Below, piece by piece: positions 2,427 through 59,938 of a stretch of 64,000 bases of DNA. The notes under the pieces were generated by a model. It had not been told where the DNA came from, ran no database searches, and worked only from the letters and a program-made list of their open reading frames with translations. Numbering within the stretch: the stretch's first letter is position 1; every line of letters starts with the position of its first letter. The translations under genes and the position numbers were made by a program. This DNA comes from Candidatus Nealsonbacteria bacterium DGGOD1a (GTDB lineage Bacteria > Patescibacteriota > Minisyncoccia > Minisyncoccales > UBA5738). The stretch is from the NCBI GenBank assembly GCA_022530585.1, contig CP092821.1:198222-262221 (forward strand), read 5' to 3'.

Positions 2427-2499
2427 TTTCGATTTTTCTTTCCATTGTTTCGCCGAATGCGCTATACTTATATTAATTGGATGGCCGCAAATAAAAAAT

Positions 2500-4127: not shown

Positions 4128-4281
4128 AAAATTCGAAGCACGAATGTCGAATATCGAAACAAATTTAAAATTCGAATGTTCAAATGTCCGAAACGAAATT
4201 TAAAATTCGTTTTAAAATTTCGAAATTTGAAACTTCAGATTTGTTTCGATATTCGATATTCGATATTCGAAATCTGAAATT
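4128..4281. repeat. AT-rich palindromic intergenic module, 'TTCGAA/CGAATAT' dialect (P1)
   Basis: Fills the pilT-pilC spacer. The arms cgaatatcgaaacaaat and atttgtttcgatattcg are inverted copies. The left ~40 nt (aaaattcgaagcacgaa..tcgaata.tcgaaacaa) recur at 38880-38920. Confidence 0.6.
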
Positions 4282-10823: not shown

Positions 10824-13088
10824 ATGAATAAAAAAACATTGTTGAATTCTGTTTTGGCGATTTCTTTGGCGGCGTTGCTCTTTGGAACGAATGTCGTTTC
10901 GGTCAATGCTTCGGCCACGAAAGCCAATTTGGAAATTTGCGCTTCCGCCGGCGAATGTATTTCAGGCAATTGCAATAGTTTGATTTGCTGTCCTTCGGGC
11001 ACTTGCGGATGGGGCGATGGAGTTAATTTTGTCCGCGAATGCGTTGCCAGCGGCCAAATTCGAGAAAATTCCTGGGCGAGTTTGATTTGCCGTTCCGGGA
11101 TATGGAAAGTGCGGTTGAATGGCTGGGGTTGCAATAATTCGGCTTGGGGCGGTTGCGATGAGGGATGGTGCCAAACTTTCGGCGATGCCGGTTTTTGCCG
11201 AAGTTGCGCTTTTGACTCTGGCTTGGCTCAAGGTTGTGCCAACGGTGAAGCATGTCCTTCGGGAACTTTATGCAATAATACGGTTTGCTGCCCTTCGGGT
11301 ACTTGCGGTTATGGAGACGGCCTTGTTTTTGGTCGCCAATGCGTGGCTAGCGGCGAAATAAGAGAAAATCTTTGGGGCCGGCAGATATGCCGCAACGGGG
11401 TTTGGAAGACCTTGGTGGGCGGCTGGGGTTGTGATGTTTTTGGGGAGTGCGAATCCGGAAGTTGCCAGGAGATTGGCGGTTACCATTATTGCATATCTTC
11501 CTTGCCGTTTTCTTCTGCGTACACTTCAACCGCTTACAATACGGGAATGTATTGCCAGGGGACTTGCCGTACTTGCGCGTCAGAGGGCAATGTTTGCGGC
11601 AATATGAGCGATAATTGCGGCAGTACAATTAATTGCGGCACATGCACCGGTGGCCAGAGTTGTTACAATAACCGTTGCGTTTTTTGTTTGCCGGGAACTG
11701 TTTCCGGGTGCAAAGTATGTAAATCCGATGGTAGTGCTTGGCAGGATGACGATGCCAAATGTTTAACCAACCAAATCTGTTCTTTGGGGGTTTGTATGGC
11801 CCGTAGTAGTTCCGATAGTCTCTACATTGTTTCAATTGCCATTGCCAACGGCGGCGCCGCCGGATACATCGATATCGGCGATACCATCAAAATTACTTTC
11901 AGCAAAGCCATCGATCCGGCTTCAATCAACAGCGGCCTTTCATCGGGAAGTTATGTTTCCGGCGTCTCTTCTTCCCAGATCGGCGGCGTGAGCGTTTCTT
12001 CGACGGGCATAGTGAATATTAACGGCATCGCCCTTTTTGATACGGGAACGGTGGACGATTCCGGCACTTTCACTTCCAAACTGGCGCTTGATTCCGCGGG
12101 GAAAGTTTTGACCGTAACACTGACGAGCGGCAATGCCATTAGAGTCGTCAGCGAGAATTATAGCGGTACCGTTCAGTTCGGAAATACGGTGAAAGATACC
12201 AACGGCAACGCAATGGCAAGCGATGCGGCCATCGATGATCCGATCGGAGGTTCCGCCGGCACGCTTTCCATTTCTTCCATTGCCATTACCAACGGCGGCG
12301 ATAAAAATTACATTGATATTGGCGATACTGTCAGAATCGCTTTTAGCGAGGCCATCGACCCGGCTTCAATCAGCGGCGGCCTTAATGAAGGCGATTATGT
12401 TTCCGGCGTTTCTTCTTCCCAGACCGGCGGCGTGAGCGTCTCTTCGACAGGCATCGTGACCATCAAAAATATCGCTGTTTTCGACGCTGGTTCGGTGGAT
12501 GATTCCGGCACTTTCACTTCCAAGCTGGCTTTGAGTTCCACCGGCAAAATTTTAACCATTACGCTGACCGGCGGTGGCAATATCAGGATTGCCAATGAGA
12601 GTTTCGGCAGTGCCAGCCAGATTGGCGGTACGGTGGAAAATGTCGATGGCAACGCGATGGAAGAAAAAACTTCCATCGGCAAGCCCGCGGGCGGGTTTGG
12701 GGAAGAAGGCAGTATCGGTGCCAGCGGCGACCTTTCCGTGCTTTATGCCCAGATTGAAGCCTTGAAAGCTGAAATTACGGCTTTGCAAAAACAGTTGGCG
12801 GCGATGGGGACAACGGGAACCGGTTCTTATTCTTGCGCCGGAATCACCAAATACCTTTATTACGGGATAACCGATCCGGAAGTTTCTTGTTTGCAAAATT
12901 TTTTGAAATCGCAAGGTTACGCGGTGTTGGCAACCGGTACCTACGATTTAGCCACTAAAGCCGCCGTCAAGCAGTTTCAGGAAAAATATGCTCGCGAGAT
13001 ACTTGCTCCTTACGGATTAACCTCGGGTTCGGGCAATGTGGGCAATGATACCCGCGGCAAGATTAATCAGCTTATGGCGGTAAAATAA
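10824..13088 (+). CDS. secreted Cys-rich surface protein: 2x Cys-knot-like module, 2x Ig-like (SbsA-type) repeat, coiled coil, C-terminal peptidoglycan-binding domain
   Basis: Sec signal (..VSVNA|SA). The module CxxGxxCxSGxxCNNTVCCPSGxCGxGD...C(V/R)ASG(Q/E)IREN..W occurs twice. A 146-aa repeat (IAIxNGGxxxYIDIGDTxxIxFSxAIDPASI) occurs twice. Coiled coil LSVLYAQIEALKAEITALQKQL. PG_binding_1-like segment GITDPEVSCLQNFLKSQGY...AVKQFQEKY. Confidence 0.75.
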   Translation: MNKKTLLNSVLAISLAALLFGTNVVSVNASATKANLEICASAGECISGNCNSLICCPSGTCGWGDGVNFVRECVASGQIRENSWASLICRSGIWKVRLNGWGCNNSAWGGCDEGWCQTFGDAGFCRSCAFDSGLAQGCANGEACPSGTLCNNTVCCPSGTCGYGDGLVFGRQCVASGEIRENLWGRQICRNGVWKTLVGGWGCDVFGECESGSCQEIGGYHYCISSLPFSSAYTSTAYNTGMYCQGTCRTCASEGNVCGNMSDNCGSTINCGTCTGGQSCYNNRCVFCLPGTVSGCKVCKSDGSAWQDDDAKCLTNQICSLGVCMARSSSDSLYIVSIAIANGGAAGYIDIGDTIKITFSKAIDPASINSGLSSGSYVSGVSSSQIGGVSVSSTGIVNINGIALFDTGTVDDSGTFTSKLALDSAGKVLTVTLTSGNAIRVVSENYSGTVQFGNTVKDTNGNAMASDAAIDDPIGGSAGTLSISSIAITNGGDKNYIDIGDTVRIAFSEAIDPASISGGLNEGDYVSGVSSSQTGGVSVSSTGIVTIKNIAVFDAGSVDDSGTFTSKLALSSTGKILTITLTGGGNIRIANESFGSASQIGGTVENVDGNAMEEKTSIGKPAGGFGEEGSIGASGDLSVLYAQIEALKAEITALQKQLAAMGTTGTGSYSCAGITKYLYYGITDPEVSCLQNFLKSQGYAVLATGTYDLATKAAVKQFQEKYAREILAPYGLTSGSGNVGNDTRGKINQLMAVK
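11029..11620 (+). repeat. ~590-nt block nearly identical to 15871-16462 (dispersed duplicate inside two different genes)
   Basis: At an offset of 4842 nt I see only a handful of substitutions: gatgttt/gatcttt, caggagatt/caaaagatt, ttctgcg/ttccgcg. The flanks diverge on both sides. Confidence 0.85.
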
Positions 13089-15653: not shown

Positions 15654-18509
15654 ATGATTAGACTTGGAAAAAATATAGGATTTGCCATTTTGATTTCCGT
15701 GCTTGCAATCGGCGGTTGTTGGCACTTTTTCAACTTTCAAAATGATTCCTTGGTTGAGGCTGACAGCTTGCAGGGTTGCGCCAGCGGTGAAGCCTGCCCT
15801 TCAGGTACGGCTTGCAACAATACGGTCTGTTGCCCGTCCGGTTATTGCGGTTGGGGCGATAATGTTTATTTTGTCCGCGAATGCGTTGCCAGCGGCCAAA
15901 TTCGAGAAAATTCCTGGGCGAGTTTGATTTGCCGTTCCGGGATATGGAAAGTGCGGTTGAATGGCTGGGGTTGCAATAATTCGGCTTGGGGCGGTTGCGA
16001 TGAGGGATGGTGCCAAACTTTCGGCGATGCCGGTTTTTGCCGAAGTTGCGCTTTTGACTCTGGCTTGGCTCAAGGTTGTGCCAACGGTGAAGCATGTCCT
16101 TCGGGAACTTTATGCAATAATACGGTTTGCTGCCCTTCGGGTACTTGCGGTTATGGAGACGGCCTTGTTTTTGGTCGCCAATGCGTGGCTAGCGGCGAAA
16201 TAAGAGAAAATCTTTGGGGCCGGCAGATATGCCGCAACGGGGTTTGGAAGACCTTGGTGGGCGGCTGGGGTTGTGATCTTTTTGGGGAGTGCGAATCCGG
16301 AAGTTGCCAAAAGATTGGCGGTTACCATTATTGCATATCTTCCTTGCCGTTTTCTTCCGCGTACACTTCAACCGCTTACAATACGGGAATGTATTGCCAG
16401 GGGACTTGCCGTACTTGCGCGTCAGAGGGCAATGTTTGCGGCAATATGAGCGATAATTGCGGCGGTACGATTTATTGCGGCGATTGTTCTTCCGGCCAAA
16501 CTTGCGCTTCCGGCCAATGCGTTTCTAGTTGTGTCAATGATTGTTCTTCCAGCGGCGCCAAGCAATGCGGCGGCAACGGTGTCCAAACCTGCGGCAATTA
16601 CGATGCCGACAGCTGTTTGGAATGGAGTGCGGCGGTTGCCTGTTCTTCGGGACAAATCTGTGCGTCCGGCCAATGCGTTTCTAGTTGTGTCAATGATTGT
16701 TCTTCCAGCGGCGCCAAGCAATGCGGCGGCAACGGTGTCCAAACCTGCGGCAATTACGATGCCGACAGCTGTTTGGAATGGAGCGCGGCGGTTGCCTGTT
16801 CTTCGGGACAAATCTGTGCGTCCGGCGTTTGCGTTGCCAGTAGCGACGATTGTACCGCCGAGTATTCCAAAAAATGTTATAACGGCAATGTTTATTGGTA
16901 TGATTCTTGCGGAGTTCGCGGCGATGTTTACCAGAATTGCGGTAATAGCGGGTCGACCTCAAATTATCAATGCGGCGGTAATTGGCTTCAGCAGGAAACC
17001 GTTGTTAGAGATTGCGCCGCCGGCGCGTGCACTCAAGATTCATCATGGAATAATGTTCAGGATTGCGCTTTGAGCGGCAAGATATGTAAAAATGGCGTTT
17101 GTATTGCCGCCTGTGTCAATGATTGTTCTTCTAGCGGCGCCAAGCAATGCGGCGGCAACGGTGTCCAAACCTGCGGCAATTACGATGCCGACAGCTGTTT
17201 GGAATGGAGCGCGGCGGTTGCCTGTTCTTCGGGACAAATCTGTGCGTCCGGCGTTTGCGGCGTTAAAGACGCGCTTGCGCCTGTAATTTCAGGTTTGGCG
17301 CCTTCGGGGAAAGCATACAATTCCAGCGTGGTTTTGGTTGCGACCACCAACGAGGCCGCGGATTGCCGTTATAGCTGGTATGATAGAAGTTTTGACCAGA
17401 TGACTTTACCGTTCAAAACTTCAAACAAGCTTTATCATTCGGCGCCGGTATCTTTGAGTTCTTACGGCAAGTACACTTATTATGTGCGTTGCAAAGACGC
17501 TTTCGGCAATGCCAATCAGATACCAAGCAAAATATCGTTTGATTATGTTTCGGCAACCGGTGCCGCCACTATTGCCGCGCCAAATATTCAAGCGTCTTCA
17601 ACTGTTTCATCCACCGCGGGTCTCGCGGATAAAACTCCGGCGGCGATTTCCGGTCTGGCGCCATCGGGCGCCATCACCAATGCCACGACCGTTATTTCTT
17701 GCGTTACCGGCGAAAAAGCGACTTGCAGGTACGATATTGCCGATACGGATTACGATTCGATGGAAAATACGATGGATACCGCCGCCGGCGTTCATCAGAG
17801 CAAAACAATAACATTGTCCAGTCCCGGAAATTACAATTACTATGTCCGTTGCAAAGACGCGGCGGGCAACAAGAACGCCGATTCGGTTAAAATCAATTTT
17901 GATTACGCGCCAGCTTCAAAAGTTCCGCCGGTAGTTTCCGAATTGCAACCTGCCAGCCCGGTTTATCAGAAAAGCGTAATGCTGACGGCGGTTACCGATA
18001 AGGCGGCTCAATGCCGCTGGTCAACCCGGGATCAGGATTTTGACGCGATGCCGGGACAATTTTCGGCAACCGATGGCCAAAACCAGCAAGCGATAGTGGA
18101 TTTAAACGATTACGGCCGATACGATTATTATGTGCGGTGCAAAGATGACGCGGGCGGCAAGGCCGCGGTTTCTTCGGTGATTAGTTTTGAATATAAAAAT
18201 CCGGAGCTGGAAGCCGCGGTTTTAAATGAAGTCGCCATTCCCGCTCAACAAGAACCTGTCGCTTGCGGAAAACCGGTTGCCGGCGCCAGCGACGGCGCTT
18301 GCAGCGCCGCGGTTGATTGTGTTTGCGATCCGGACTGCTCGGCCGGCGGCGGCGATGATCCTGATTGCGCCGCCGCGGCTGATAATTCAAGCGCCGCCGG
18401 CAATTTGTTGATTATCGCTATTCCGGTTGTCCTGATCGTTGTTGTCGTCGCGTTGATCGCGGCGGTGAAAAAAAGACGCGGCGGGGAAGACGGCGGCGAA
18501 GAAAACTAA
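15654..18509 (+). CDS. giant Cys-rich surface protein: shared N-terminal Cys modules, 52-aa Cys repeats, 3x Ig-like repeats, C-terminal TM anchor
   Basis: N-terminal signal/possible lipobox LAIGGC. Residues ~70-270 are near-identical to the 10824 protein. Four copies of C(V/x)NDCSSSGAKQCGGNGVQTCGNYDADSCLEWSAAVACSSGQICASG. Three repeats of SGLAPSG...CRY...Y.YYVRCKDxxGN. C-terminal LLIIAIPVVLIVVVVALIAAV-KKRRGGEDGGEEN. Confidence 0.75.
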   Translation: MIRLGKNIGFAILISVLAIGGCWHFFNFQNDSLVEADSLQGCASGEACPSGTACNNTVCCPSGYCGWGDNVYFVRECVASGQIRENSWASLICRSGIWKVRLNGWGCNNSAWGGCDEGWCQTFGDAGFCRSCAFDSGLAQGCANGEACPSGTLCNNTVCCPSGTCGYGDGLVFGRQCVASGEIRENLWGRQICRNGVWKTLVGGWGCDLFGECESGSCQKIGGYHYCISSLPFSSAYTSTAYNTGMYCQGTCRTCASEGNVCGNMSDNCGGTIYCGDCSSGQTCASGQCVSSCVNDCSSSGAKQCGGNGVQTCGNYDADSCLEWSAAVACSSGQICASGQCVSSCVNDCSSSGAKQCGGNGVQTCGNYDADSCLEWSAAVACSSGQICASGVCVASSDDCTAEYSKKCYNGNVYWYDSCGVRGDVYQNCGNSGSTSNYQCGGNWLQQETVVRDCAAGACTQDSSWNNVQDCALSGKICKNGVCIAACVNDCSSSGAKQCGGNGVQTCGNYDADSCLEWSAAVACSSGQICASGVCGVKDALAPVISGLAPSGKAYNSSVVLVATTNEAADCRYSWYDRSFDQMTLPFKTSNKLYHSAPVSLSSYGKYTYYVRCKDAFGNANQIPSKISFDYVSATGAATIAAPNIQASSTVSSTAGLADKTPAAISGLAPSGAITNATTVISCVTGEKATCRYDIADTDYDSMENTMDTAAGVHQSKTITLSSPGNYNYYVRCKDAAGNKNADSVKINFDYAPASKVPPVVSELQPASPVYQKSVMLTAVTDKAAQCRWSTRDQDFDAMPGQFSATDGQNQQAIVDLNDYGRYDYYVRCKDDAGGKAAVSSVISFEYKNPELEAAVLNEVAIPAQQEPVACGKPVAGASDGACSAAVDCVCDPDCSAGGGDDPDCAAAADNSSAAGNLLIIAIPVVLIVVVVALIAAVKKRRGGEDGGEEN
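16512..16823 (+). repeat. tandem 156-nt (52-codon) coding repeat, two near-identical units; third unit at 17112-17258
   Basis: ggccaatgcgtttctagttgtgtcaatgattgttcttccagcggcgccaagcaatgcggc... restarts at 16668. A related module lies in the 53119 gene. Confidence 0.85.
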
Positions 18510-29698: not shown

Positions 29699-29723
29699 TT
29701 GTGTGATTTTCATAATTCTGCGT

Positions 29724-32700
29724 ATGAAAAGAAACGCCAATCGCCATAATCGTTTTTTAAATTTTGGATTGGCCGCGCAAGCGGCCATTTTGGCGTTGGT
29801 GCTGTTGTCGGTATCGTTCTTGCCGCGCGTTATTTTTGCCGCCACATTCACCGTTGCGCCGGATAGCGAATACCAAACCATCCAATCCGCGATTGGCGCG
29901 TCGAGCAATGGCGATACGGTTTTGGTTGCGCCCGGAGTTTACCGCGAGAATGTGGCTTTCGGGGGCAGGATTATTTTAAAAGCTGAAAATGCTGCGCCGG
30001 GCGCCACGGTTATCGAAGCCGTTGATCCCGCCGTGTCGGCGATCACGGCGGCGGGTCCGGCTGAAATCAACGGCTTTACCATCCGCGGCGCGACCAACAG
30101 CGCCGGCATCCGCTTGAATTACGGCGCTTGGGAAGCCAAGATTAGCAACAACATCATCGAATCCAATCTGGATGGAATATATATCGTGAACTATGGTTCC
30201 GGCAATTCCGAAATCACCCGCAATATCTTCCGCGACAATACCGGATATGACATCAATCTGCCGGCGGAATATAACTCGTCGGCTGGAGTGAGTACTCAAA
30301 GCGCCGGCAACATTATCTATCTGAATGATTTCTACGGCACGCTGTATCCCTACCAAGACTATGTCAATTACTGGAATTCGCAAGAAGAGCTTGGCTATAA
30401 ATATCAAAACAAAATTTATCGCGGCAAACCGGGCAATTACCAGCCCCAATGCCAAACGGAAGATCCGGACGGCGACGGCATTGGCAATGCCGCTTGCCCG
30501 ATCGGCGGCTACACCGACAGTTTCCCGCTGGTCCAACCGTTTGAAAATTACGAGATTGCCGGCGGCAAAGACAAATTCGTCTATGTCGCTTTGGGCGATT
30601 CCTACCAATCCGGCGAAGGCGCGGGGAATTCCATTGAGGGCGCCGAAGAATATCTTGCCCGCGGGTACGAGCAAGGCACCTATACCGACACATTGATTGC
30701 CGGCGACAATTCTTGCCATCGCGCTCTGCAAAACTATGCCAAAATCAACAAAAACAAATTCCATCCCGAATTGAACGACGAAGATATTGTTTTGATCGAT
30801 TTAACCTGCAGCGGCGCAAAGATTGAAAATGGAAGCCAGCCGCCGGTGATCGGCGATATGGCCGCCGATCAAATTGCGCCCGATTCACAGCTTCAACAAG
30901 CATTGAACAAACTGAATGACGCCGGGTTAACTCCTGCTGATGTGGACTTGGTTACCGTTGGCATGGGCGGTAACGGTGCCGGATTCGTAGAAATTATCCA
31001 AGCTTGTCTTTTGCCCAATATCTTGCGCAAAGCGTTACAGGAATATCCCAATCCTCCGGCGGAGATCAAAACTTTGGTGGATATGTTTGCTTCGTGCAAG
31101 AATATTGACGATAATTTATTTGACAGCAATGCCGCGATCAACGCGCTTTATGCCAAAGAAGTTTGGGCGCAAAATAAAATTTTGCAAACTTTTGCCAAGG
31201 CCCGCGTGATTCAAGCGGATTATCCCGACATTCTTCCCCGAAACACCAAATCGCTTTCCTATTGCGGGGGTTTGCGCAAAGAAGACATCGGCTATGCCCG
31301 CGGGAAAGTGAATGCCATCAATGAAAAAATCAATCAAGCAAAGCTTGCGGTTGCGCAAAGCAATCCGCGGCTGGAGCTGGCAAGTTTGCAAAGTTCTTTG
31401 GGCGGCAACGCTCTTTGTCCGGCCAATGCCGCAACCGCGTTGGCAAATGGCGTCAAAGAAGCCAACCTTAACGCCGAAATCAGGCGACTGCTCAATCTTG
31501 ACGGCAACGGCGACGCGCAGTCCCGCGCGCTGATTGATAACTTGTTGGCGGCGTATAATTCTTGGAAGCAATGCTTGGGTGTTCACTTGAATGTATTTGA
31601 CGGTGGCGCGGATTGCGATACGGGAGAGGCGAAAAGGCAGCTATATTATTATTGGCAAAACATAGAGCAGTATTTGAAAGATAGACTTAATAATAAATTA
31701 TTACCTAATTTTATTGAGCCAGAGCAAGTTAGCAGTGAGAATAGTGAAATACGCTATGATCGCTCAAAAGGATTATTCCATCCCAATGCCAAAGGTTATG
31801 ATGTTATCGCTTGCAATATTCTGGCCGCGTACAACAAAACCGGCGCGGAGGATTGCTTGTCCTCCTCGGGCCAAGCGGTGATGGACGCGGTTAACGGGGT
31901 TTTGATTAACAATGTCCCGATCGATATTTTACCCGGGCAAATGATGAGCCTCTATTTGGGCGGCTTCACTTCGGGCGCGATTGTTCCAATAGTGATTCTT
32001 TCCGAGCCCCAAAAAATCGGAGAAGCGACTGCCGATGAAAACGGGATTATTGACACGGAAATTCTATTGCCCGAAATGAGTCCCGGCGCGCATACGATTG
32101 TTTTGGAGAGTCAAAATGACGCAGGGGCGGGCATTGCCAAGCAATTTCGGGTGAATTATCCGGGATTGCCGCGCGCGGGAGAGAGTTATGGCATTTATTT
32201 TGACAATGTTGCCGCCGGCGCGGGAGAAGAGATTAACATTATCTACGGCGGCGCGGATTTTGGCAGTTTGACTTCCGACGAAGACGGCGGGGTCTTCGTG
32301 GAATTGCCGGTCTTTGAAGGCCAAGAGCTGTTTCAAGCAATGGCAAAAAATCAAACCACGGGAGAAGTTTTGCAAACAAGCGCCGAAGTTGAAAAGCCGC
32401 GCCAATCCTTGCGGTCGCTTGCCGTCAAAACCGCTTTCATCAAATGGCAAAAAGCGAAAAATAAAAATCAAGAATTTGCCATTGCCGGGCAATTTGAATT
32501 GCCGCGAGATTTTTCAAAAGACAATTTGGCGAAAAACATAGAGTTAAAATTGATTTTTTCCGGCGGTAAAACTGCCGTTGCCAGTTTAAGTTTCAAAGAA
32601 AACAATATCTTTTGGAAATATGAAAAATTGGCCGCCGCGCAAAATCTGAAAATCAGCCGCGCGATTGTCTATTGGTCGCCGGAGAAAAAGTTCTGCGGCA

Positions 32701-32948
32701 ACAGCAAAATTTGCGCCGCCGCGCTCAAAAACAAAAATTGGTTCTATCTGCAAGGCGAGCTGGAAAATCTCGGCTTGGAAATTGATAAAACCGGCGAGAT
32801 GGAAATTGAGATTGTCCTGCCGGCAAGGATCGCCGACTTGGCCGGCAGGCAAAAATTGCCGATGAAAAAAATCGGCAATCAAAGATTTTACAATTCCGCT
32901 TGGCCGTTGAGTTTTTGGCCGCAAAACTTGGAAAGTTTCTATAAATAA
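29724..32948 (+). CDS. secreted right-handed beta-helix protein fused to an SGNH/GDSL-type esterase domain
   Basis: The ATG at 29724 gives the signal MKRNANRHNRFLNFGLAAQAAILALVLLSVSFLPRVIFA. Beta-helix start YQTIQSAIGASSNGDTVLVAPGVYREN. Ca-binding-like DPDGDGIGN. SGNH block I FVYVALGDSYQSGEGAG, then CHRALQNYAK. Confidence 0.7.
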   Translation: MKRNANRHNRFLNFGLAAQAAILALVLLSVSFLPRVIFAATFTVAPDSEYQTIQSAIGASSNGDTVLVAPGVYRENVAFGGRIILKAENAAPGATVIEAVDPAVSAITAAGPAEINGFTIRGATNSAGIRLNYGAWEAKISNNIIESNLDGIYIVNYGSGNSEITRNIFRDNTGYDINLPAEYNSSAGVSTQSAGNIIYLNDFYGTLYPYQDYVNYWNSQEELGYKYQNKIYRGKPGNYQPQCQTEDPDGDGIGNAACPIGGYTDSFPLVQPFENYEIAGGKDKFVYVALGDSYQSGEGAGNSIEGAEEYLARGYEQGTYTDTLIAGDNSCHRALQNYAKINKNKFHPELNDEDIVLIDLTCSGAKIENGSQPPVIGDMAADQIAPDSQLQQALNKLNDAGLTPADVDLVTVGMGGNGAGFVEIIQACLLPNILRKALQEYPNPPAEIKTLVDMFASCKNIDDNLFDSNAAINALYAKEVWAQNKILQTFAKARVIQADYPDILPRNTKSLSYCGGLRKEDIGYARGKVNAINEKINQAKLAVAQSNPRLELASLQSSLGGNALCPANAATALANGVKEANLNAEIRRLLNLDGNGDAQSRALIDNLLAAYNSWKQCLGVHLNVFDGGADCDTGEAKRQLYYYWQNIEQYLKDRLNNKLLPNFIEPEQVSSENSEIRYDRSKGLFHPNAKGYDVIACNILAAYNKTGAEDCLSSSGQAVMDAVNGVLINNVPIDILPGQMMSLYLGGFTSGAIVPIVILSEPQKIGEATADENGIIDTEILLPEMSPGAHTIVLESQNDAGAGIAKQFRVNYPGLPRAGESYGIYFDNVAAGAGEEINIIYGGADFGSLTSDEDGGVFVELPVFEGQELFQAMAKNQTTGEVLQTSAEVEKPRQSLRSLAVKTAFIKWQKAKNKNQEFAIAGQFELPRDFSKDNLAKNIELKLIFSGGKTAVASLSFKENNIFWKYEKLAAAQNLKISRAIVYWSPEKKFCGNSKICAAALKNKNWFYLQGELENLGLEIDKTGEMEIEIVLPARIADLAGRQKLPMKKIGNQRFYNSAWPLSFWPQNLESFYK

Positions 32949-46536: not shown

Positions 46537-48510
46537 CTATTTCCAAATCCTTTTTGTGTCGGTATACCAGTCGGCGATGCCGGCGAAGCGTTGGCCCGGG
46601 CCGGTGATGATGCCGGTTTTCACTCCTTTGACATCTTTGGAAGCGATGAAAATATAACTTGGATTGTAAAGGAATATCGCGGGTTCTTCTTTGGCTATCA
46701 TATCCTGGAAAATACGCAGTTTCTCTTCGCGCGCGTTTTGGTCGGTTAGGCCGCGTATTTCTTCCAGAAGCTTATCGGCGTCTTTGTTTTCGTATTGCGC
46801 GAAATTTAATCCCGGATCGGCTTTTTGGCTGGAATGCCAGAAAGGGTACGGGTCGGGGATCGTGCCCAGCGCTTGTCCGAAAAGCAAGGCTTCGTAGGCG
46901 CGCGGTTTGACGCTGTCGCGTTCGATATTGGCAATATCCACCGCGTTGATATTCACGGTTACGCCAATTTTGGCCCATTGGTTTTTGATGATTTGGGCCA
47001 CCGCGTTGAACGGCTCTTGTTTGGCGATAGTTAAGGTTATGTTTAATTGCGCGGTTGTGTTGCCCGAAGGGAAACAAACCGCGTTTAATTTCTCGCGCGT
47101 GGCAAGCTTGACTTCGCCGGTGGCTTTCTCGATCTTTTGCGGATCAAGAATGTCGGCGCGGTATTTTTCTTGGAATAATTTAACCGCTTCCAAGGTTTGA
47201 TCGCCGAAATTGCCGTTGGCTTCCAAAGAGGGCATTACTTCGCGGGCCAGGCATTTTTGCAGTTCTTTTACATCGGAGTTCAAGTTCGTTCCTTTTACCA
47301 GCGTTTTGTTGAATTGAAATGCCGGTTGCCGGCTGGTGTTTTTCGCCCGCAAACCGTCCGATCCCTGTTTGTAGCCGGCATCGTCAAGGATTTGGTTCGC
47401 TTTTTGAATGTCGTAATCATAAACTGTTGCCGGAGCCGCGAGAGAATATATATCCGTTGGCACGGGCGAATCAACGGTTGCGCCTTTGCCGCCCAAGGCA
47501 TTGGTCAGTATCTCGTTTTTATCGGTGGCGTAAGCCAATGCCGCGCGCACCTGCGCGTCTTCAAGAACTTTGTTGGCGTCGGGGTTGAAAAATATCGCGA
47601 AATAGCGCGGCATTGAATAATTGAAAGAATTCGCGCCCGCCAGTCCGGAGACGCCGATATCCGCGGAAGGGACGAAGCCTTGCACGCGCCCGCGCTTAAA
47701 GGCCGAGACCAGATCGGCGTAATTGTCAAAGAAAACAAAGGTTATCTTTTGCAGGTTCGATTTTTGGCCGTAAAATTTGGGATTTCTTTCCAATTCGATT
47801 GATGTGGCCTGGCCGTCTTTGGCAAGATTCAGTTTTTTAACGAGGTATGCTCCGGAAACTACCGGATTCAGATTGAACGGCGAAAGCGGAAAATTATCCG
47901 AATTGGCGGCGGTCCAAATATGCGAGGGAATGAGCTTGAGAGTGCAATTTTCCAAGAAAGAAGCGTAAGGATTTTTCAATTTGAGGCGGAAGCCGGTGTC
48001 GGAAATTTTTTCGGTTTCCACGCCGATCCATTGCGGCCGCAAAGGACTTTTATAGGCCGGGTCCTGGATGGTTTTGATGGTATAAATCGCGTCTTCGCTG
48101 GTAATCGGCGCGCCGTCGGACCAATAAAGGTTGTCTTTTAATGTGAATTCATAGGTTTTGCCATCATCGGAGATATTATAGTCGGCCAATCCGCTCGTGA
48201 TTCGGCCGTTTGAATCGTATTCCAGCAATCCGGCAAAAAGCAGGCGCGCGATATCCTGGTCGGCGCTGTATGAATCCGAATAGACCGGATTCAAAAAACG
48301 CGGTTGGCCCACAATGCCTTCGATGTAACTGCCGTTATCGGCGGCGACAGTCATTGTGCGGTTGGCGTACAAGGCCGCGGTTAAAGTTATCGCCGAAGCA
48401 ACCGCCAAAAACGCAAAAATAAAAAACGCCGGTTTTTCTTTGCGGGAGAGGATTTTAAAAAATTGCTTCCATTGAACGAGCGAAGGAAACTTCATTAATT
48501 CGCTTCGCAA
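46537..48510 (-). CDS. extracellular solute-binding protein, family 5 (peptide/nickel type) with inserted peptidoglycan-binding-like domain
   Basis: 657 aa. N-terminal anchor, then SBP_bac_5-like body (YIEGIVGQPRFLNP, YEFTLKDNLYWSDGAPITSED). Residues ~401-480 (DVKELQKCLAR...GNFGDQTLEAVKLFQEKY) resemble the PG_binding_1 domain of the 10824 protein. Confidence 0.75.
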   Translation of the reverse strand: MRSELMKFPSLVQWKQFFKILSRKEKPAFFIFAFLAVASAITLTAALYANRTMTVAADNGSYIEGIVGQPRFLNPVYSDSYSADQDIARLLFAGLLEYDSNGRITSGLADYNISDDGKTYEFTLKDNLYWSDGAPITSEDAIYTIKTIQDPAYKSPLRPQWIGVETEKISDTGFRLKLKNPYASFLENCTLKLIPSHIWTAANSDNFPLSPFNLNPVVSGAYLVKKLNLAKDGQATSIELERNPKFYGQKSNLQKITFVFFDNYADLVSAFKRGRVQGFVPSADIGVSGLAGANSFNYSMPRYFAIFFNPDANKVLEDAQVRAALAYATDKNEILTNALGGKGATVDSPVPTDIYSLAAPATVYDYDIQKANQILDDAGYKQGSDGLRAKNTSRQPAFQFNKTLVKGTNLNSDVKELQKCLAREVMPSLEANGNFGDQTLEAVKLFQEKYRADILDPQKIEKATGEVKLATREKLNAVCFPSGNTTAQLNITLTIAKQEPFNAVAQIIKNQWAKIGVTVNINAVDIANIERDSVKPRAYEALLFGQALGTIPDPYPFWHSSQKADPGLNFAQYENKDADKLLEEIRGLTDQNAREEKLRIFQDMIAKEEPAIFLYNPSYIFIASKDVKGVKTGIITGPGQRFAGIADWYTDTKRIWK

Positions 48511-48623: not shown

Positions 48624-48845
48624 TTATTTTTGGAACAGGTTGTAGATTGCCAAGCCGATGAAAACGACCGCCAGGGCGATGGTGGCGCGGAATATCTTTT
48701 TTTGGATGCCGCGCTGGGTCGAATAAGCGCCGCTGGATTGTCCGAACGCCGAACCCAAGCCCGCGCCGCCGCGCTGTTGCAGTAAAACCAAGCCGATGAT
48801 GGCCGCGGAAATCACGATTTGAACGATGGCGATAATATTGTCCAT
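48624..48845 (-). CDS. secG: preprotein translocase subunit SecG
   Basis: 73 aa with two TM helices and a Gly-rich loop LLQQRGGAGLGSAFGQSSGAYSTQRG. Confidence 0.8.
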   Translation of the reverse strand: MDNIIAIVQIVISAAIIGLVLLQQRGGAGLGSAFGQSSGAYSTQRGIQKKIFRATIALAVVFIGLAIYNLFQK

Positions 48846-49171
48846 AAAATAGAATTAAATATCATTATTGTCAGGGTCGCGGCCAAAAGCGGCCAAATTC
48901 CTTGAATGCGCAATTCCGGCACCAGGGCGTCGGCCAGCCAAACCATTGACATATCTATTACTAAACTAAATAAATTTAAAGTCAAGATTCGCAGGGGCAG
49001 CGACAACAATTTCAAGATCGGCGCGATTGCCAGATTCAGCAGGGCGATGCAAAATCCGGCAAACAGCAAAATTTGCCATTCGCCGCTATATTCAATGTTT
49101 GGCACGAACCGCGCCGCGACATACAGTCCCATCCCGCTTCCGATTGTGTAAGCGATCAATTTTCCCAACAT
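48812..49171 (-). CDS. small 4-TM membrane protein (phage-holin-4_2/DUF360-like)
   Basis: 119 aa. GLYVAARFVPNIEYSGEWQILLFAGFCIALLNLAIAPILKLLSLPLRILTLNLFSLVID fits that family's pattern. It overlaps the secG start by 34 nt. Confidence 0.55.
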   Translation of the reverse strand: MLGKLIAYTIGSGMGLYVAARFVPNIEYSGEWQILLFAGFCIALLNLAIAPILKLLSLPLRILTLNLFSLVIDMSMVWLADALVPELRIQGIWPLLAATLTIMIFNSILWTILSPSFKS

Positions 49172-51752: not shown

Positions 51753-51986
51753 ATGAAACAGATGTTGCATTATAATATTATTTTGCGGCCCGAGCCGGAG
51801 GGCGGTTTTACGGTGTTGGTGCCGGCATTGCCCGGGTGCGTCACCTATGGCAAGGATTTAGACGAAGCGCGGCGAATGGCAAAAGAAGCGATTGAATTAT
51901 ACATAGAAGATTTAAAGGCGCATAAAGATGAAATTCCCAATGGCAGGGATTATTTGATCTCGTCTTTGGAAATCGTTTCCGTCTAA
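51753..51986 (+). CDS. hicB: HicB-family antitoxin (UPF0150 fold)
   Basis: 77 aa. YNIILRPEPEGGFTVLVPALPGCVTYGKDLDEARRMAKEAIELYIEDL is the classic HicB N-domain pattern. Confidence 0.8.
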   Translation: MKQMLHYNIILRPEPEGGFTVLVPALPGCVTYGKDLDEARRMAKEAIELYIEDLKAHKDEIPNGRDYLISSLEIVSV

Positions 51987-51987
51987 T

Positions 51988-52212
51988 ATGGCCAAACTAC
52001 CCGCGATTACCCCGAAAAAGCTGATAAGCATATTGGAGAAATCCGGCTTTGCGGTGAGTCGCGTTTCGGGCAGTCATGTTATTTTGAATCGTCCGACTGA
52101 CAAAAGAAGGATAATCGTGCCTTGCCATACGAAAGATTTGCCGAAAGGAACATTGATGTCAATTTTGCATGAGGCGGGAATTGATAAAGATCAATTAAAA
52201 GATTTGGTTTAA
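51988..52212 (+). CDS. hicA: HicA mRNA-interferase toxin
   Basis: 74 aa. PKKLISILEKSGFAVSRVSGSHVILNRP....IVPCHTKDLPKGTLMSILHEAG, including the catalytic GSH motif. It starts 2 nt after hicB. Confidence 0.85.
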   Translation: MAKLPAITPKKLISILEKSGFAVSRVSGSHVILNRPTDKRRIIVPCHTKDLPKGTLMSILHEAGIDKDQLKDLV

Positions 52213-52376
52213 ATAAATATGGAAATTTTGATCAATCAAGATTTTTGTTGCCGCGGCTTCACTTTTATCAAAAAGCGGCGTTTTGTGAATGTAAAGCGTA
52301 AAGCGTGAAACTCAAAGTTCAATATTCAAAGTTTATTCATCGCCGCCCGGGAGCGGTTTTTAATTTTATTCACACA

Positions 52377-52775
52377 ATGCCCAAATATCAAATCAAAAAC
52401 ATTGCCGCCGGTTTGTTGAAACCCCACGAAGAAATTTGCCCGATTCATTCGCGAAACTTGCTGGCTCAAATCAAAAAAGACCGATGCCTCAAAAATCCGA
52501 TAATCGTCGACAAAGATACGATGGTGATTTTGGACGGCCATCATCGTTATAATTTGTTGAAACTGCTGGGTTGTAATTTTATTCCGTGCTGTTTGGTTGA
52601 TTATCAAGCCCCGGAGATCGGCGTTTCCTGCTGGCGCGAGGGTGAAAAAATCAGCAAAAAAGAAGTTCTTGCCGCCGGCTTATCCGGCAAGCTGTTGCCT
52701 CAAAAAACTTCTCGCCATATCATTCCCGACCGCCCCATCGGCATGGATATCGCGCTTTCGGAATTGAAATTGTGA
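52377..52775 (+). CDS. ParB/Srx-fold nuclease-domain protein (stand-alone)
   Basis: ATG at 52377. LLKPHEEI...NPIIVDKDTMVILDGHHRYNLLKLLG matches the ParB-like N-terminal nuclease domain. There is no HTH/dimerisation part. Confidence 0.65.
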   Translation: MPKYQIKNIAAGLLKPHEEICPIHSRNLLAQIKKDRCLKNPIIVDKDTMVILDGHHRYNLLKLLGCNFIPCCLVDYQAPEIGVSCWREGEKISKKEVLAAGLSGKLLPQKTSRHIIPDRPIGMDIALSELKL

Positions 52776-52893: not shown

Positions 52894-53118
52894 TTGCTTG
52901 AAATTACCTTTACAATCCGTGGCCTTATTATAAAGTAAAGATGGAGGTAATTACTTTAAATTATGGGATTGGTCCGCAGTGAAAAATTTTGAATTGGAAT
53001 CGCGTCGGAAAAAATTTTGAAATATACTTGGCAAAAAGTATGTTGAAAATTTTTTTCAACGGCACAACCCAAAATAAAATTTTGTAGTGGGATTGATTTC
53101 GTAATTCAAAGGAATAAG

Positions 53119-55086
53119 ATGATTTTATTTATGCGCTCGCTGTTTTTGCTATCGTTGGTTTTTTTTGGGTTTTCGGCGCTGAATGCCGATGCCGCCAGCG
53201 GTTATTTTATCAAGGTAAACACCCACACCCATACGGCATGGGATAATACTAATGGTTACGGGTCCGATGGGCGAAACACTTTGGCGGAAATGGTTGATGC
53301 TTACAAATCAAAGGGATATAATTTGCTGGTGATCACCGATCATAATTCCTATGATGGAACAAAAACAAGCAGTTTGACTCAAGGTTATTTTGTAAATCGG
53401 GTCAATCCTTTTACGCCTTGCGATTCTTACAGCGATCCGGCGAACAAGTTTTTGTGCATCAGCGGCGAAGAGCTGACTCCCGGCATTGGAGTTTTCGGCG
53501 ATCATGCTCATCATGCCTTATTGGTGGGAGGAAAAAAACCATGGACAAATTTCGATGATAACGCGGATAATATCAAGAAAGCTTTCAGTTCGACGATATC
53601 TCAAGGAGGTTTTGCGGTTATTGCCCATCCAAGCTCAAAAAATCCGCTTTATGATCACAAAGGATTCAAGTTGGCGGACAATGAAACATATTGGACGCTT
53701 CCCGAATTAAAGAGTTTTGATTATACCGCGATGGAAATTAGCGCCACTACATCTGTCGCGTGGTGGGACGAGGTTCTGAAGTCCAAGCTTGACAGAAAAG
53801 TTTTTGGAATTCTTGGCGACGACGCGCACAGCGCGGCGGCGGCGGGGAAAAAATGGATACAGGCGTATGTGGCGGAATTGTCAAAAGAAGCGTTTCTAAA
53901 CGCGGTCAATCAGGGATACTTTTATTCTTCTACCGGGCCAAGTATGAATAGCGACGCGTTTTCATTTAAATGCGACAATGGCACAACTTACAATATGGGC
54001 CAAACCATTGGAACCATTGAATGCGGTAAAGGAAAATTCAAAGCCGGCGTGGTTGCCAGTGCCTCAAACGCTTTCGTTAAAAATATCAAAATCATTAAAA
54101 ACGGAGCGGTGATTTATAATAAAACTGATTGCCCAAAAGCTCAACAGTGTTCGTTTGAGTTTCCTCAAACAATAAAGGATGCCGCTTATTACCGTATGGA
54201 AGCCACGGATTCGGCGGGTAAATCATTATGGAGCAATCCAATCTGGTCGGTGGTTGAGTCCGCCCGTGTTGCCGTGTGCGCCAATGATTGCGCTTCCGGT
54301 ACCAAGCAATGCAGCGGCAACGGCGTCCAGACCTGCGGCAATTACGATACCGACAGCTGTCTGGAATGGTCTTTGCCAACCCCTTGCTCCTCCGGCCAGA
54401 TTTGTTCCTCGGGTTCTTGTTCCGCCGCCAGTTGTACCGGAGAATGTTCCGAATCCGGTACCAAGCAATGCAGCGGCAACGGCGTCCAGACCTGCGGCAA
54501 TTACGATACCGACAGCTGTCTGGAATGGAGCGCGGCGGTTAATTGCGCTTCCGGCCAGACCTGCTCCCAGGGCGTTTGCGTTGCCGCGTGCGCCAATGAT
54601 TGCGCTTCCGGTACCAAGCAATGCAGCGGCAACGGCGTCCAGACCTGCGGCAATTACGATACCGACAGCTGTCTGGAATGGTCTTTGCCAACCCCTTGCT
54701 CCTCCGGCCAGATTTGTTCCTCGGGTTCTTGTTCCGCCGCCAGTTGTACCGGAGAATGTTCCGAATCCGGCGCCAAGCAATGCAGCGGCAACGGCGTCCA
54801 GACCTGCGGCAATTACGATACCGACAGCTGTCTGGAATGGTCTTTGCCAACCCCTTGCTCCTCCGGCCAGATTTGTTCCTCGGGTTCTTGTTCCGCCGCC
54901 AGTTGTACCGGAGAATGTTCCGAATCCGGCGCCAATAGCAGCGATTATGATATCGATAGCGCTGATCAGGTTTGTCCCAACGGCGTTTGTTCAAATTTGG
55001 ATTATATACAATCGCAGATCAATGTGATACAAAAAGCAATCAGCCGGCTCTTTGACCTGTTGGCAGCATTGAGAGAGGGCCGTTAA
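53119..55086 (+). CDS. secreted PHP-domain phosphoesterase fused to 4.3 copies of the 52-aa Cys-rich module
   Basis: Signal ..SALNADA|AS. PHP motifs KVNTHTHTAWD, LLVITDHN, AIAHP and GDDAH. Then CANDCASGTKQCSGNGVQTCGNYDTDSCLEWS... repeats, and a C-terminal amphipathic helix. Confidence 0.7.
   Translation: MILFMRSLFLLSLVFFGFSALNADAASGYFIKVNTHTHTAWDNTNGYGSDGRNTLAEMVDAYKSKGYNLLVITDHNSYDGTKTSSLTQGYFVNRVNPFTPCDSYSDPANKFLCISGEELTPGIGVFGDHAHHALLVGGKKPWTNFDDNADNIKKAFSSTISQGGFAVIAHPSSKNPLYDHKGFKLADNETYWTLPELKSFDYTAMEISATTSVAWWDEVLKSKLDRKVFGILGDDAHSAAAAGKKWIQAYVAELSKEAFLNAVNQGYFYSSTGPSMNSDAFSFKCDNGTTYNMGQTIGTIECGKGKFKAGVVASASNAFVKNIKIIKNGAVIYNKTDCPKAQQCSFEFPQTIKDAAYYRMEATDSAGKSLWSNPIWSVVESARVAVCANDCASGTKQCSGNGVQTCGNYDTDSCLEWSLPTPCSSGQICSSGSCSAASCTGECSESGTKQCSGNGVQTCGNYDTDSCLEWSAAVNCASGQTCSQGVCVAACANDCASGTKQCSGNGVQTCGNYDTDSCLEWSLPTPCSSGQICSSGSCSAASCTGECSESGAKQCSGNGVQTCGNYDTDSCLEWSLPTPCSSGQICSSGSCSAASCTGECSESGANSSDYDIDSADQVCPNGVCSNLDYIQSQINVIQKAISRLFDLLAALREGR
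54277..54935 (+). repeat. tandem coding repeats (~156-nt unit, 312-nt higher-order period)
   Basis: tgcgccaatgattgcgcttccggtaccaagcaatgcagcggcaacggcgtccagacctgcggcaattacgataccgacagctgtctggaatgg recurs at 54277 and 54589. tgtaccggagaatgttccgaatccgg units alternate with it. Confidence 0.85.
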
Positions 55087-55152: not shown

Positions 55153-55267
55153 ATAAAAAAATACATTGATGTCGGGGCATTAACCCCGCCATCAACCAAA
55201 GGATGTTTCCTTTGGAATTCTCATTCTTTTTGTTCCCCGCAGCGAGCTGACGGGGTATAAAAAGAAT
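55153..55267 (-). repeat. three-hairpin repeat element, copy C
   Basis: The reverse complement reads ttctttttataccccgtcagctcgctgcggggaacaaaaagaatgagaattccaaaggaaacatcctttggttgatggcggggttaatgccccgacatcaatgtatttttttat. Confidence 0.6.
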
Positions 55268-56891: not shown

Positions 56892-57374
56892 TTAATTAGC
56901 TTTGGCGATGATGGCGGTGTAGTTTTTGCCGTAGGCTTTGGCGCATTTGGGGCAAGTGGTGTACCACATATACATTTTCTCGATTTTCAATCCTTTTTCT
57001 TTGGCGAAATTTTCAAAATCTTGGCACCATTTGCCGGTGTCTTTGAAATCGCCTTCATAGACTTTGCTCAAAAATTTCCCCGACAAAACAATATTCTCCG
57101 CGTCCGGGACGGCTTTATCCACGGCAACATACAAATCCATATTCCATTTTGAGGTATGGTCCGAAAGCGCCAGCCAATCCGGAGCTTTCGCGCCGGCTTT
57201 GTCTATTTTTGCCATCAGTTTCATGATGACGCCGCCGAAATTTACCGGCATATAAAATAAAGTGAAAACCTTGCCTTTGATGAATTTTTTGTCTTGCCAC
57301 TCAAAAACTTTGCCGTCCCATGGTTCGGGATTGAATTTGGGACAGCACCCGGTTTCTTGAATTTCGTTCTCCAT
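56892..57374 (-). CDS. conserved hypothetical cytoplasmic protein with CC...CPKC cysteines
   Basis: 160 aa. GCCPKFNPEPWDGKVFEWQDKKFIKG...YMWYTTCPKCAKAYGKNY. I recall the N-terminal CCPxFxPxxWD pattern from uncharacterised proteins but cannot name the family. Confidence 0.6.
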   Translation of the reverse strand: MENEIQETGCCPKFNPEPWDGKVFEWQDKKFIKGKVFTLFYMPVNFGGVIMKLMAKIDKAGAKAPDWLALSDHTSKWNMDLYVAVDKAVPDAENIVLSGKFLSKVYEGDFKDTGKWCQDFENFAKEKGLKIEKMYMWYTTCPKCAKAYGKNYTAIIAKAN

Positions 57375-57660: not shown

Positions 57661-57748
57661 GGAGGGGTCGCATAGCGGCCGAGTGCGCGCGCTTGGAAAG
57701 CGCGTATACCGCAAGGTATCGCGGGTTCAAATCCCGCCCCCTCCGCCA
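57661..57748 (+). tRNA. tRNA-Ser (anticodon GGA), CCA encoded
   Basis: GGAGGGG...CGCGC-TTGGAAA-GCGCG-(long variable arm TATACCGCAAGGTATC)-GCGGG-TTCAAAT-CCCGC-CCCCTCC-G-CCA. Confidence 0.92.
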
Positions 57749-58765: not shown

Positions 58766-59938
58766 ATGGAAAAATTTGAACAACAAAACAATCCAGAGAC
58801 AATTTCTAAATTCGAAGATTTTAGAGGTTTAGATTTGTCTGGAAAAGATTTAAGAGCGATACCAGTTGAGGTTTTAATAACTGCCGATTTTGATACACAA
58901 ACGACATGGCCAGAACAAAATAAATTACCGGCTGGTTTTAATCCAGAAAAAATAATTGATGAAGCAAAAAATCCTGGGCTTGGAATAGGTGGGTTACATC
59001 AAAAAGGAATAGACGGTCGAGGGGTTAGAGTTGCTATCATTGATCAGACTTTGTCATCCGAAACAGGAGAGTTCGTAGCACATTCAGAGTATGCTACAAA
59101 CATTATTGATTATAAAGAATATGGTGACGCAAAAGACGAAAGTGTAAGCATGCACGGCCCCGCTGTTGTTAGTTTGTTGGTAGGAAAAACATGCGGAGTC
59201 GCATCGAGAGCTGAACTTTTTTACAGAGCTACACCGTCAGGAAGAGATTTTGATCACAAAGCGGATGCATTGTTCGATATCATTGAATTCAATAGAACAC
59301 TTCCTCCTAAAGATAGAATTAGAGTAGTAAGTTGCTCGGTAGGTTATATGGAAGAAAAACCGGAACCGGGTTTGAAAAGATGGATTGAAGCTATTAAGAA
59401 GGCCGAGACAGAAGGCATTATAGTTTCCGATGTTGGTGATAGAACTGGTGTTGACTACATAGGAGGTGGAACGAGTGATGATAAAAATGACCCAGAGAAC
59501 TACAGTCGAGCATTGTTTTCGAAAGATCAAGGAAACGAGGAGTTGGATAAAGTTTTTGCGGAATCTGACGGAGGTGTTGACTTGATTTTGAGAAAAATAA
59601 GAGAAATAAAAAAGGATGAAGTTTCAAATATCCCTGATTCGGTTTTGAGAGAAAAAATACAGAAAGCCGTGGAGGACAGAGGAAAAGAAATAATAATTCC
59701 ATGTGACTACAGAACAATGGCGTCTAATGAGGGGTCGGAAGAATATATGTATAATGGAAAAGGAGGAATGAGCTGGGCTGTCCCATTCTTATCGGGTCTA
59801 TTTGCGTTAGCTTTTCAAGTTAATCCCAACCTTGCAAAAGAGGAAATTGCAGACGCAATAAATACAACTGCAAGTGTAAGCAAAAAAGGATTAAAGGTAG
59901 TTAACCCAAGGGCGTTTATTGAAGCTATTCAAATATAG
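58766..59938 (+). CDS. subtilisin-like serine peptidase (S8 family), no signal peptide
   Basis: Catalytic contexts VAIIDQT (Asp), SMHGPAVVSLL (His) and GGMSWAVPFLSGLFALA (Ser). AT-rich. Confidence 0.7.
   Translation: MEKFEQQNNPETISKFEDFRGLDLSGKDLRAIPVEVLITADFDTQTTWPEQNKLPAGFNPEKIIDEAKNPGLGIGGLHQKGIDGRGVRVAIIDQTLSSETGEFVAHSEYATNIIDYKEYGDAKDESVSMHGPAVVSLLVGKTCGVASRAELFYRATPSGRDFDHKADALFDIIEFNRTLPPKDRIRVVSCSVGYMEEKPEPGLKRWIEAIKKAETEGIIVSDVGDRTGVDYIGGGTSDDKNDPENYSRALFSKDQGNEELDKVFAESDGGVDLILRKIREIKKDEVSNIPDSVLREKIQKAVEDRGKEIIIPCDYRTMASNEGSEEYMYNGKGGMSWAVPFLSGLFALAFQVNPNLAKEEIADAINTTASVSKKGLKVVNPRAFIEAIQI

Follow-up and report, generated by a model that had tools for sequence, protein, structure and literature searches.

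A predicted exported PHP-fold metallohydrolase of the CehA/McbA family, joined to repeated cysteine modules and a C-terminal heptad helix, in Candidatus Nealsonbacteria bacterium DGGOD1a

The open reading frame (ORF) at 53119-55086 (+) of a 64,000-nucleotide stretch of the Candidatus Nealsonbacteria bacterium DGGOD1a genome (contig CP092821.1; this whole stretch is called the window, and positions refer to it) encodes a protein of 655 residues. As the best overall explanation of this protein we favor, on balance, a Sec-exported and competent metallohydrolase of the polymerase and histidinol phosphatase (PHP) fold, carried on a cysteine-rich stalk with a C-terminal heptad helix, which would hydrolyze phosphoesters and so feed an epibiont. 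On sequence grounds the enzyme is a member of an undescribed, exported and probably disulfide-bearing subfamily common to DPANN archaea and a few Nealsonbacteria. The protein already falls in a named family and is already annotated in the published genome, where the identical protein, UMX48154.1, received the name CehA/McbA family metallohydrolase from the NCBI pipeline (PGAP). In exact-sequence comparison GroEL, LemA, RpoB and neighboring proteins of the window are likewise identical to those of DGGOD1a. The DGGOD1a genome is closed from long reads, measures 1.16 Mb and is classified in Patescibacteria, Paceibacterales, UBA5738. In the benzene-degrading culture that it inhabits, the bacterium is attached to the methanogen Methanothrix; it lacks the synthesis of nucleotides, lipids and most amino acids, and its growth is best with added crude cell lysate (bioRxiv 10.1101/2022.04.20.488981).

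Membership of the CehA/McbA family of PHP hydrolases is almost certain. Residues 31-376 cover positions 3-313 of the 315 in the NCBIfam profile NF038032 and score 104 bits against a cutoff of 80 (E = 9.9e-30). The Pfam model PF02811 (PHP), with which a first-pass annotation of this DNA had proposed to confirm the domain, stays below threshold, with 15.5 bits against a cutoff of 26.4 and a match limited to residues 47-81; the fold and NF038032 nonetheless place the domain as PHP-type, and the Pfam model is too narrow for the divergent branch that holds this protein. The set of metal ligands is complete and comprises H36, H38, D50, H75 (with D74), E118, H132, H170, D235 and H237, together with an invariant E206. 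Each ligand is invariant in all 14 sequences of the exported subfamily and is kept in at least 108 of the 115 homologues of a distant census set, which are of the cytoplasmic type, roughly 355 residues long and in many cases annotated as Anaerolineae or Chloroflexota. The four motifs picked out in the first-pass annotation are real and belong to this full set, HTHT being H36/H38, DHN being D74/H75, HP being H170 and DDAH being D234/D235/H237; D50, E118, H132 and E206 had not been listed. Loss of conserved ligands had been named there as grounds for abandoning the assignment, and our alignment finds the full set conserved with none lost.

This conservation bears on the idea that the protein is a pseudo-enzyme adhesin, in which the fold is kept mainly as a binding module. 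The architecture has an adhesin-like character, with repeats, variation in copy number and modules held in common with an adhesin-like protein of the same window. Such proteins typically lose ligand residues, however, and ligands that are invariant in the subfamily and widely kept among remote homologues make this reading very improbable. Judged by its intact site, the enzyme is likely to be catalytically active.

An alignment-based AlphaFold model of the enzyme domain reached a predicted local distance difference test score (pLDDT) of 87.2 and a predicted template modeling score (pTM) of 0.88, and consists of a barrel followed by an all-beta domain. The latter (domain positions 249-352) matches the beta-sandwich-like middle that had been suggested from the letters alone. 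It holds the cysteine pairs C285-C302 and C338-C344 and an invariant YYR...SNPIW motif, and the barrel holds a probable disulfide, C101-C113. Two loops, at residues about 77-98 and 172-190, occur only in the bacterial clade, and the model has low confidence there. Searched against the PDB with Foldseek, the model finds 3e38 first (E = 1e-9), then 2anu (TM0559), RNase AM, PsfC and EndoQ, and the match probability is 1.00 to 3e38, 2anu, 7ug9, 9etk, 5zb8 and the PHP domains of Pol III and PolX. The beta-sandwich by itself resembles the N-terminal domain of chitinase A, CARDB and SoxZ-type folds. Profile comparison with the PDB recovers 2anu, 3e38, YcdX, RNase AM and PolX, and aligns the HxH, DH and HP motifs with those of YcdX, whose counterparts we take to be the metal ligands described in the YcdX structure paper. 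The proposed identity as a PHP-fold metal hydrolase is thus one on which NF038032, the intact ligands, AlphaFold and Foldseek agree.

The chemistry of the reaction is less readily assigned than the fold. The full set of nine ligands is the pattern of characterized PHP phosphoesterases, and this set, together with nuclease and phosphatase structural neighbors, points to phosphoester chemistry. By this analogy a phosphoester substrate is about as likely as not; we go no higher because the characterized members of the family cleave carbamates and identity to annotated members is 22-26%. The enzyme could instead act on carbon esters as an esterase or amidase, in the manner of the carbaryl hydrolases CehA and McbA. 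It passes the CehA/McbA model, and the characterized members are exported and hydrolyze carbamates using histidines of the PHP-like domain (PMC8292978). Carbaryl or oxamyl is the carbamate cleaved by the name-giving members. Set against this are the low identity (22-26%) to annotated CehA/McbA-family proteins on plasmids and the lack of any carbaryl hydrolase gene among the matches in the plasmid collection at E <= 0.01, a collection outside which the cehA/mcbA plasmids perhaps lie. The nine-ligand phosphoesterase pattern also aligns with the YcdX motifs, the structural neighbors are RNase AM, EndoQ, PolX and PsfC, and the benzene-degrading methanogenic culture, as described, has no role for carbamate pesticides. 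We therefore hold activity on carbon esters to be improbable.

The N-terminus has the layout of a Sec-type leader, and the clear signal peptide reported in the first-pass annotation stands. An n-region, MILFMR, precedes an h-region of 15 residues, SLFLLSLVFFGFSAL (S7-L21, Kyte-Doolittle about 2), and then NADA/AS, where the slash marks the cleavage point. Cleavage is predicted at A23-D24-A25/A26, and R6 supplies the positive charge of the n-region, so that by eye and by hydropathy the leader has the features of type I signal peptides. Both orthologues have AxA sites in register, ANA/ADGGYF in P0001 and ADA/GFF in P0002, at an equal distance from the first strand of the barrel, and a hydrophobic N-terminal leader is present on every full-length member of the close set. 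The three cysteine pairs of the enzyme domain (101/113, 285/302 and 338/344) are kept in 13-14 of the 14 closest sequences. The distant homologues, which lack signal peptides, have cysteine at these six positions in 0/115 cases and an N-terminal hydrophobic stretch likewise in 0/115. In one relative, P0010, C285 and C302 are both missing, and this joint loss fits a disulfide pair; the three pairs of the enzyme domain would be disulfides.

A signal peptide combined with cysteine pairs that are confined to signal-peptide-bearing relatives makes export of the protein very probable. PHP domains had been described in the first-pass annotation as usually cytoplasmic, which made an exported one seem unusual. 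This premise is weakened, as the characterized CehA/McbA members have signal peptides, McbA of strain C5pp is experimentally periplasmic (PMC8292978), and the whole subfamily described here is extracytoplasmic. An extracytoplasmic PHP domain is therefore the rule for the exported branch and not a peculiarity of this protein.

To examine the distribution of the subfamily, 1.84 billion representatives were searched exhaustively with HMMER, the enzyme domain being the query. This returned 918 relatives, just 13 of them at E < 1e-30. In the bacterial clade three Nealsonbacteria-type clusters were found, the DGGOD1a cluster and two orthologues only: P0001 (78% identity), which has one module of eight cysteines (8-Cys module) and the C-terminal helix, and P0002 (55% identity), with one module of a different cysteine type and the helix. 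With E = 1e-183 and 1e-117 for these orthologues, the resemblance of ORF 53119-55086 to them is not due to chance. When a single genome of each GTDB species was scanned with one peptide pattern, nine loci were found, all in metagenome-assembled genomes (MAGs) of DPANN archaea (Pacearchaeota, Woesearchaeota and Nanoarchaeia); these labels are the record titles of the nine MAGs, one of which is an 856-kb contig. The flanking genes at two of the archaeal loci give no independent proof of archaeal origin. A bacterial RpoB fragment (P0321, HPO06716.1) at least 90% identical to Nealsonbacteria RpoB has been deposited as 'Candidatus Pacearchaeota archaeon', so cross-binning of the candidate phyla radiation (CPR) with DPANN does occur in public MAGs, which is a caveat on the taxonomy of shared genes. 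In a distance-based neighbor-joining tree with bootstrap, the bacterial trio has 100% support and is sister to the archaeal radiation, and the exported subfamily is split from the cytoplasmic type with 97% support; the tree does not resolve the direction of transfer. The survey of similar fusions suggested in the first-pass annotation thus finds relatives of the domain, in the bacterial trio and at nine DPANN loci, and the partner modules in the archaea differ. The literature was also searched for the family in DPANN or CPR, and nothing specific was found.

Downstream of the enzyme domain lies an array of 8-Cys modules, each of about 52 residues with the spacing C-x3-C-x6/7-C-x7-C-x7-C-x8-C-x5-C-x4-C. 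The first-pass annotation had counted four or more copies, the same as in the adhesin-like protein, and this is upheld: there are four full copies and one degenerate copy here, and three copies in the adhesin-like ORF 15654-18509; a hidden Markov model (HMM) of the module finds it in these two ORFs and in no other of the window. The degenerate fifth copy retains its first 10 residues (596-605) and about its last 10 (about 614-626), which match HMM positions 1-11 and 39-51. At the DNA level the array is a tandem repeat with a period of 312 bp, units 1+2 being 98% identical to units 3+4, and the module DNA of the PHP gene and of the adhesin-like gene is 76-94% identical in patches. Copy number varies among near-identical sequences from other assemblies. 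One of 598 residues (P0301) has three modules and two further substitutions, which indicate a different strain, and a fragment (P0017) has one module, which could be an assembly collapse; the four-module form is the version in the long-read-closed DGGOD1a genome.

Searches of the module against Pfam, NCBIfam and the PDB gave noise only at E <= 10. In metagenomes, a scan with a narrow pattern added 19 further loci, where the module stands beside PKD, InlB-B-repeat, peptidase M60, LamG and Ig-like domains. The varied copy number and varied domain partners suggest a mobile extracellular spacer or binding module. Its cysteines may form disulfides, and the array as a whole would serve as a rapidly evolving stalk.

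The first-pass annotation had missed the helix that ends the protein. A single-sequence AlphaFold prediction of the whole chain has a mean pLDDT of 34.7, with confidence limited to the signal peptide and to the helix at 625-652 (pLDDT 71-82). The hydrophobic residues of the helix, L627, I630, I634, I637, I641, L644, L648 and L651, follow a 3-4-3-4 spacing with a hydrophobic moment of 1.85, and the heptad helix is conserved in P0001 and P0002. Similar helices occur at the C-termini of secreted proteins that carry the module but are otherwise unrelated (loci L014, L020 and L027), and these CPR bacteria may use the helix in common for tethering or sorting. Elsewhere in the window, ORF 10824-13088 (+) encodes a secreted protein of 754 residues with a cysteine-rich N-terminus, a Big_5 domain and a heptad helix, LSVLYAQIEALKAEITALQKQLAAM, that leads straight into a PG_binding_1 domain. 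This protein is possibly a docking partner for proteins that have the helix only.

Display on the cell surface, as proposed in the first-pass annotation, fares less well than export. Hydropathy and sequence inspection found no C-terminal transmembrane segment, lipobox cysteine or LPXTG motif in the protein, and Pfam and NCBIfam scans of it found no PG_binding, SLH or S-layer-binding domain; each of these anchors was looked for and none was found. A lipoprotein is ruled out by the leader, which lacks a lipobox, and a C-terminal transmembrane anchor by the amphipathic nature of the tail helix. Retention at the surface is consequently a little harder to credit than its opposite.

We propose the following scheme. 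After cleavage of the leader at ADA/AS, the mature exported protein would have four parts. The barrel would bind up to three divalent metals through the nine ligands listed above; fused to it is the beta-sandwich, followed by a rapidly evolving 8-Cys spacer (four or three copies in full-length proteins, one in the fragment); and the C-terminal helix would mediate oligomerization or a non-covalent tether to helix-bearing surface proteins, in place of a covalent or membrane anchor. The likeliest reaction would be a metal-activated hydrolysis of phosphoesters in material that is extracellular or comes from the host, be it nucleic acids, nucleotides or other phosphodiesters, and the released products could feed an epibiont that is unable to make nucleotides. 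The scavenging of nucleic acids or nucleotides, or of nucleotides or phosphate as suggested in the first-pass annotation, fits the organism in view of its missing biosynthetic pathways and lysate-stimulated growth; we offer this particular role tentatively, as a possibility short of a probable one.

The same chemistry could be turned on the host itself. The enzyme would then be a phosphodiesterase of the host envelope or cell wall, used for attachment or penetration and not for the scavenging of nutrients. It would cut phosphodiester-linked polymers on the surface of the archaeal host or of necromass, or their lipid head groups, with the cysteine modules and helix positioning it at the contact site. 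The closest relatives lie inside giant DPANN surface proteins, beside LamG, fn3, Ig, cadherin-like and receptor-binding-like domains, a setting in keeping with binding to a partner surface; DPANN and CPR lineages have small genomes and are described as symbiotic or host-attached; and DGGOD1a, whose host is an archaeon, lacks lipid synthesis. The adhesin-like ORF 15654-18509 encodes a signal peptide, two Cys/Trp-rich N-terminal units of about 100 residues, the three 8-Cys modules, a second type of cysteine module (also present in P0002), three Ig-like repeats, and a transmembrane anchor with a basic tail. A homologue of this adhesin-like gene (L025 261-2288; L002 1877-3145) lies immediately downstream of the PHP gene in the P0001-type relative. 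Its product ends in a heptad helix and a region that, when compared by eye with ORF 10824-13088, resembles a peptidoglycan-binding domain. DGGOD1a does not share this adjacency, its two genes lying 37 kb from each other. As the chemistry is that of the favored explanation, the two cannot be told apart by sequence alone; we consider the attack on the host envelope unlikely.

Related to both proposals is the wider idea of an extracellular PHP family specific to ultra-small, host-attached organisms (DPANN, and CPR living on archaea), which would harvest or breach phosphoester material of the host at the cell-cell interface. In the CPR bacteria a hitherto undescribed device would keep it on the surface, the helix docking onto the helices of peptidoglycan- or membrane-bound proteins and the variable cysteine stalk setting the reach. 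This idea is speculative and, in our estimation, has little chance of being correct as a whole.

Several observations weigh against the favored explanation of an exported phosphoester hydrolase on a disulfide-bonded stalk. The sub-threshold Pfam score is one of these. The nearest solved structures, 3e38 and 2anu, are structural-genomics entries without known function. The sole characterized CehA/McbA members hydrolyze carbamate esters and not phosphoesters (PMC8292978). The DGGOD1a culture is strictly anoxic and reduced, which leaves disulfides plausible at most, and the 8-Cys modules could bind metals rather than form disulfides. The protein has no anchor motif and could simply be released. 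Finally, synteny differs between DGGOD1a, in which the neighbors of the PHP gene are groES/groEL, hicAB, lemA and htpX, and the P0001-type relative, in which they are ligA and the adhesin-like gene; a conserved neighborhood was accordingly dropped as a functional clue.

The start of the gene differs between annotations. JGI and NCBI place it at M5 (53131), which gives 651 residues, and there is no AAGGA-like motif before that start; such a motif is found before the upstream ATG at 53119 (Table 1). The contig bearing the gene in the JGI data is Ga0310376_1000051. No proteomic, expression or annotation mention of the PHP gene was found in the OR-consortium papers.

Table 1. Positions of the predicted features of the PHP protein gene and of the related modules in the adhesin-like ORF.
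Feature	Window coordinates	Strand	Basis
AAGGA ribosome-binding-site-like motif	53109..53113	+	5 nt before ATG at 53119; read from upstream sequence
Sec-type signal peptide, aa 1-25	53119..53193	+	Hydropathy, n/h/c layout, orthologue conservation
PHP-fold barrel, aa about 29-274	53203..53940	+	NF038032, alignments, ligand census, AlphaFold, Foldseek, profile-to-PDB comparison
C-terminal beta-sandwich of the family domain, aa about 275-378	53941..54252	+	AlphaFold, Foldseek, NF038032 coverage
Four tandem 8-Cys modules, aa 387-438, 439-490, 491-542 and 543-595, order A-B-A-B'	54277..54903	+	Regular expression and HMM, 85-91 bits each
Degenerate fifth module, CTGECSESGA ... QVCPNGVCS, with an acidic linker in place of the middle	54904..54993	+	Partial HMM matches
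Amphipathic heptad (a/d) helix, aa 626-652	54994..55074	+	AlphaFold, hydrophobic moment, conservation
Terminator-like hairpin, inside the 189-bp gap ahead of lemA	55196..55215	+	Consensus scan only
Three 8-Cys modules in the membrane-anchored adhesin-like ORF 15654-18509	16530..17264	+	HMM, 89-94 bits; translation

Several further features of the window were noted. Between groEL and the PHP gene, Pfam matches on the JGI gene calls identify a pair of HicB-like antitoxin and HicA toxin genes (about 51753-52212, +). Directly upstream of the PHP gene is a small ORF (52305-52775, +) of 132-156 residues, depending on the start, which has no Pfam match at E <= 0.01 and whose ILDGHHRY recalls proteins of the ParB/sulfiredoxin fold. 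A family-5 solute-binding protein of the oligopeptide type (46537-48510, -) has a PG_binding_1 domain inserted mid-protein, at residues 412-451, and a Phage_holin_4_2 family membrane protein is encoded at 48812-49171 (-), probably one of the two 'holins' of the genome paper. Type IV pilus genes at 654-5487 (+) encode two ATPases, one PilB-like with an MshEN domain and one PilT-like, and a PilC-like platform protein, with a 35-bp tandem repeat (4141-4209) in the gap ahead of the platform gene. An ORF of 1081 residues at 29703-32948 (+) starts 5 nt past rpoC and has weak beta-helix, DUF1565 and GDSL-lipase-like matches only. A Cys- and Trp-rich protein of 160 residues at 56892-57374 (-) belongs to PF20603, 'Bacterial hydrolase'. 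The segment 58001-60000 has a GC content of 0.354, against a window mean of about 0.47, and covers a divergent subtilase-like (S8) ORF at 58766-59938 (+); a tRNA-Ser gene (57661-57748) adjoins this low-GC S8 gene, and the segment may have been acquired.

CPR and DPANN organisms rely on other cells for nucleotides and lipids, and few extracellular enzymes of acquisition are known. The protein described here is an expressible candidate from a closed genome, in an organism with a stable laboratory culture, a known host in Methanothrix and a known response to lysate. That its subfamily is confined to surface proteins of DPANN and to a few Nealsonbacteria hints at a toolkit common to the two ultra-small groups, or at gene transfer from one to the other. 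Both the 8-Cys module, which is uncatalogued, and the recurring C-terminal helix can be reused as markers in searches for CPR surface proteins. If the enzyme proves to be no more than an ordinary secreted phosphatase or nuclease, a useful annotation would have been gained and not a discovery.

Consideration of known systems places the protein between several groups. CehA of Rhizobium sp. AC100 and McbA of Pseudomonas sp. C5pp and XWY-1 share its NF038032 domain, with barrel and beta-sandwich, and have signal peptides, and in McbA the histidines of the PHP-like domain are catalytic (PMC8292978). In contrast to these enzymes, the DGGOD1a protein adds three cysteine pairs, an array of cysteine modules and a C-terminal helix, and it has no context of pesticide degradation. 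The structure 3e38 (BVU_3505 of Bacteroides vulgatus, a 'two-domain protein containing predicted PHP-like metal-dependent phosphoesterase') has the same layout of barrel then beta-sandwich. Together with 2anu (TM0559) it gives the best profile and fold matches, yet identity is only 13-18% and neither protein has cysteine modules or a C-terminal helix. YcdX, RNase AM (YciV/TrpH), the PolX PHP domain, EndoQ and the pAp phosphatase Cv1693 (2yb1) have the same fold; all of these reside in the cytoplasm, have no counterpart of this family's beta-sandwich and appear as remote profile matches (E = 1e-4 to 1e-10). Closest are the giant surface proteins of DPANN archaea, which are 33-44% identical over the whole enzyme domain, share the three cysteine pairs and the YYR...SNPIW motif, and are also extracytoplasmic. 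In these the domain is internal to proteins of 900-1760 residues that are rich in N-glycosylation sequons and carry LamG, fn3 and Ig-type domains, in some cases (P0007 and P0012) with a C-terminal transmembrane anchor, whereas the bacterial protein has 655 residues, other partner modules and two clade-specific loop insertions.

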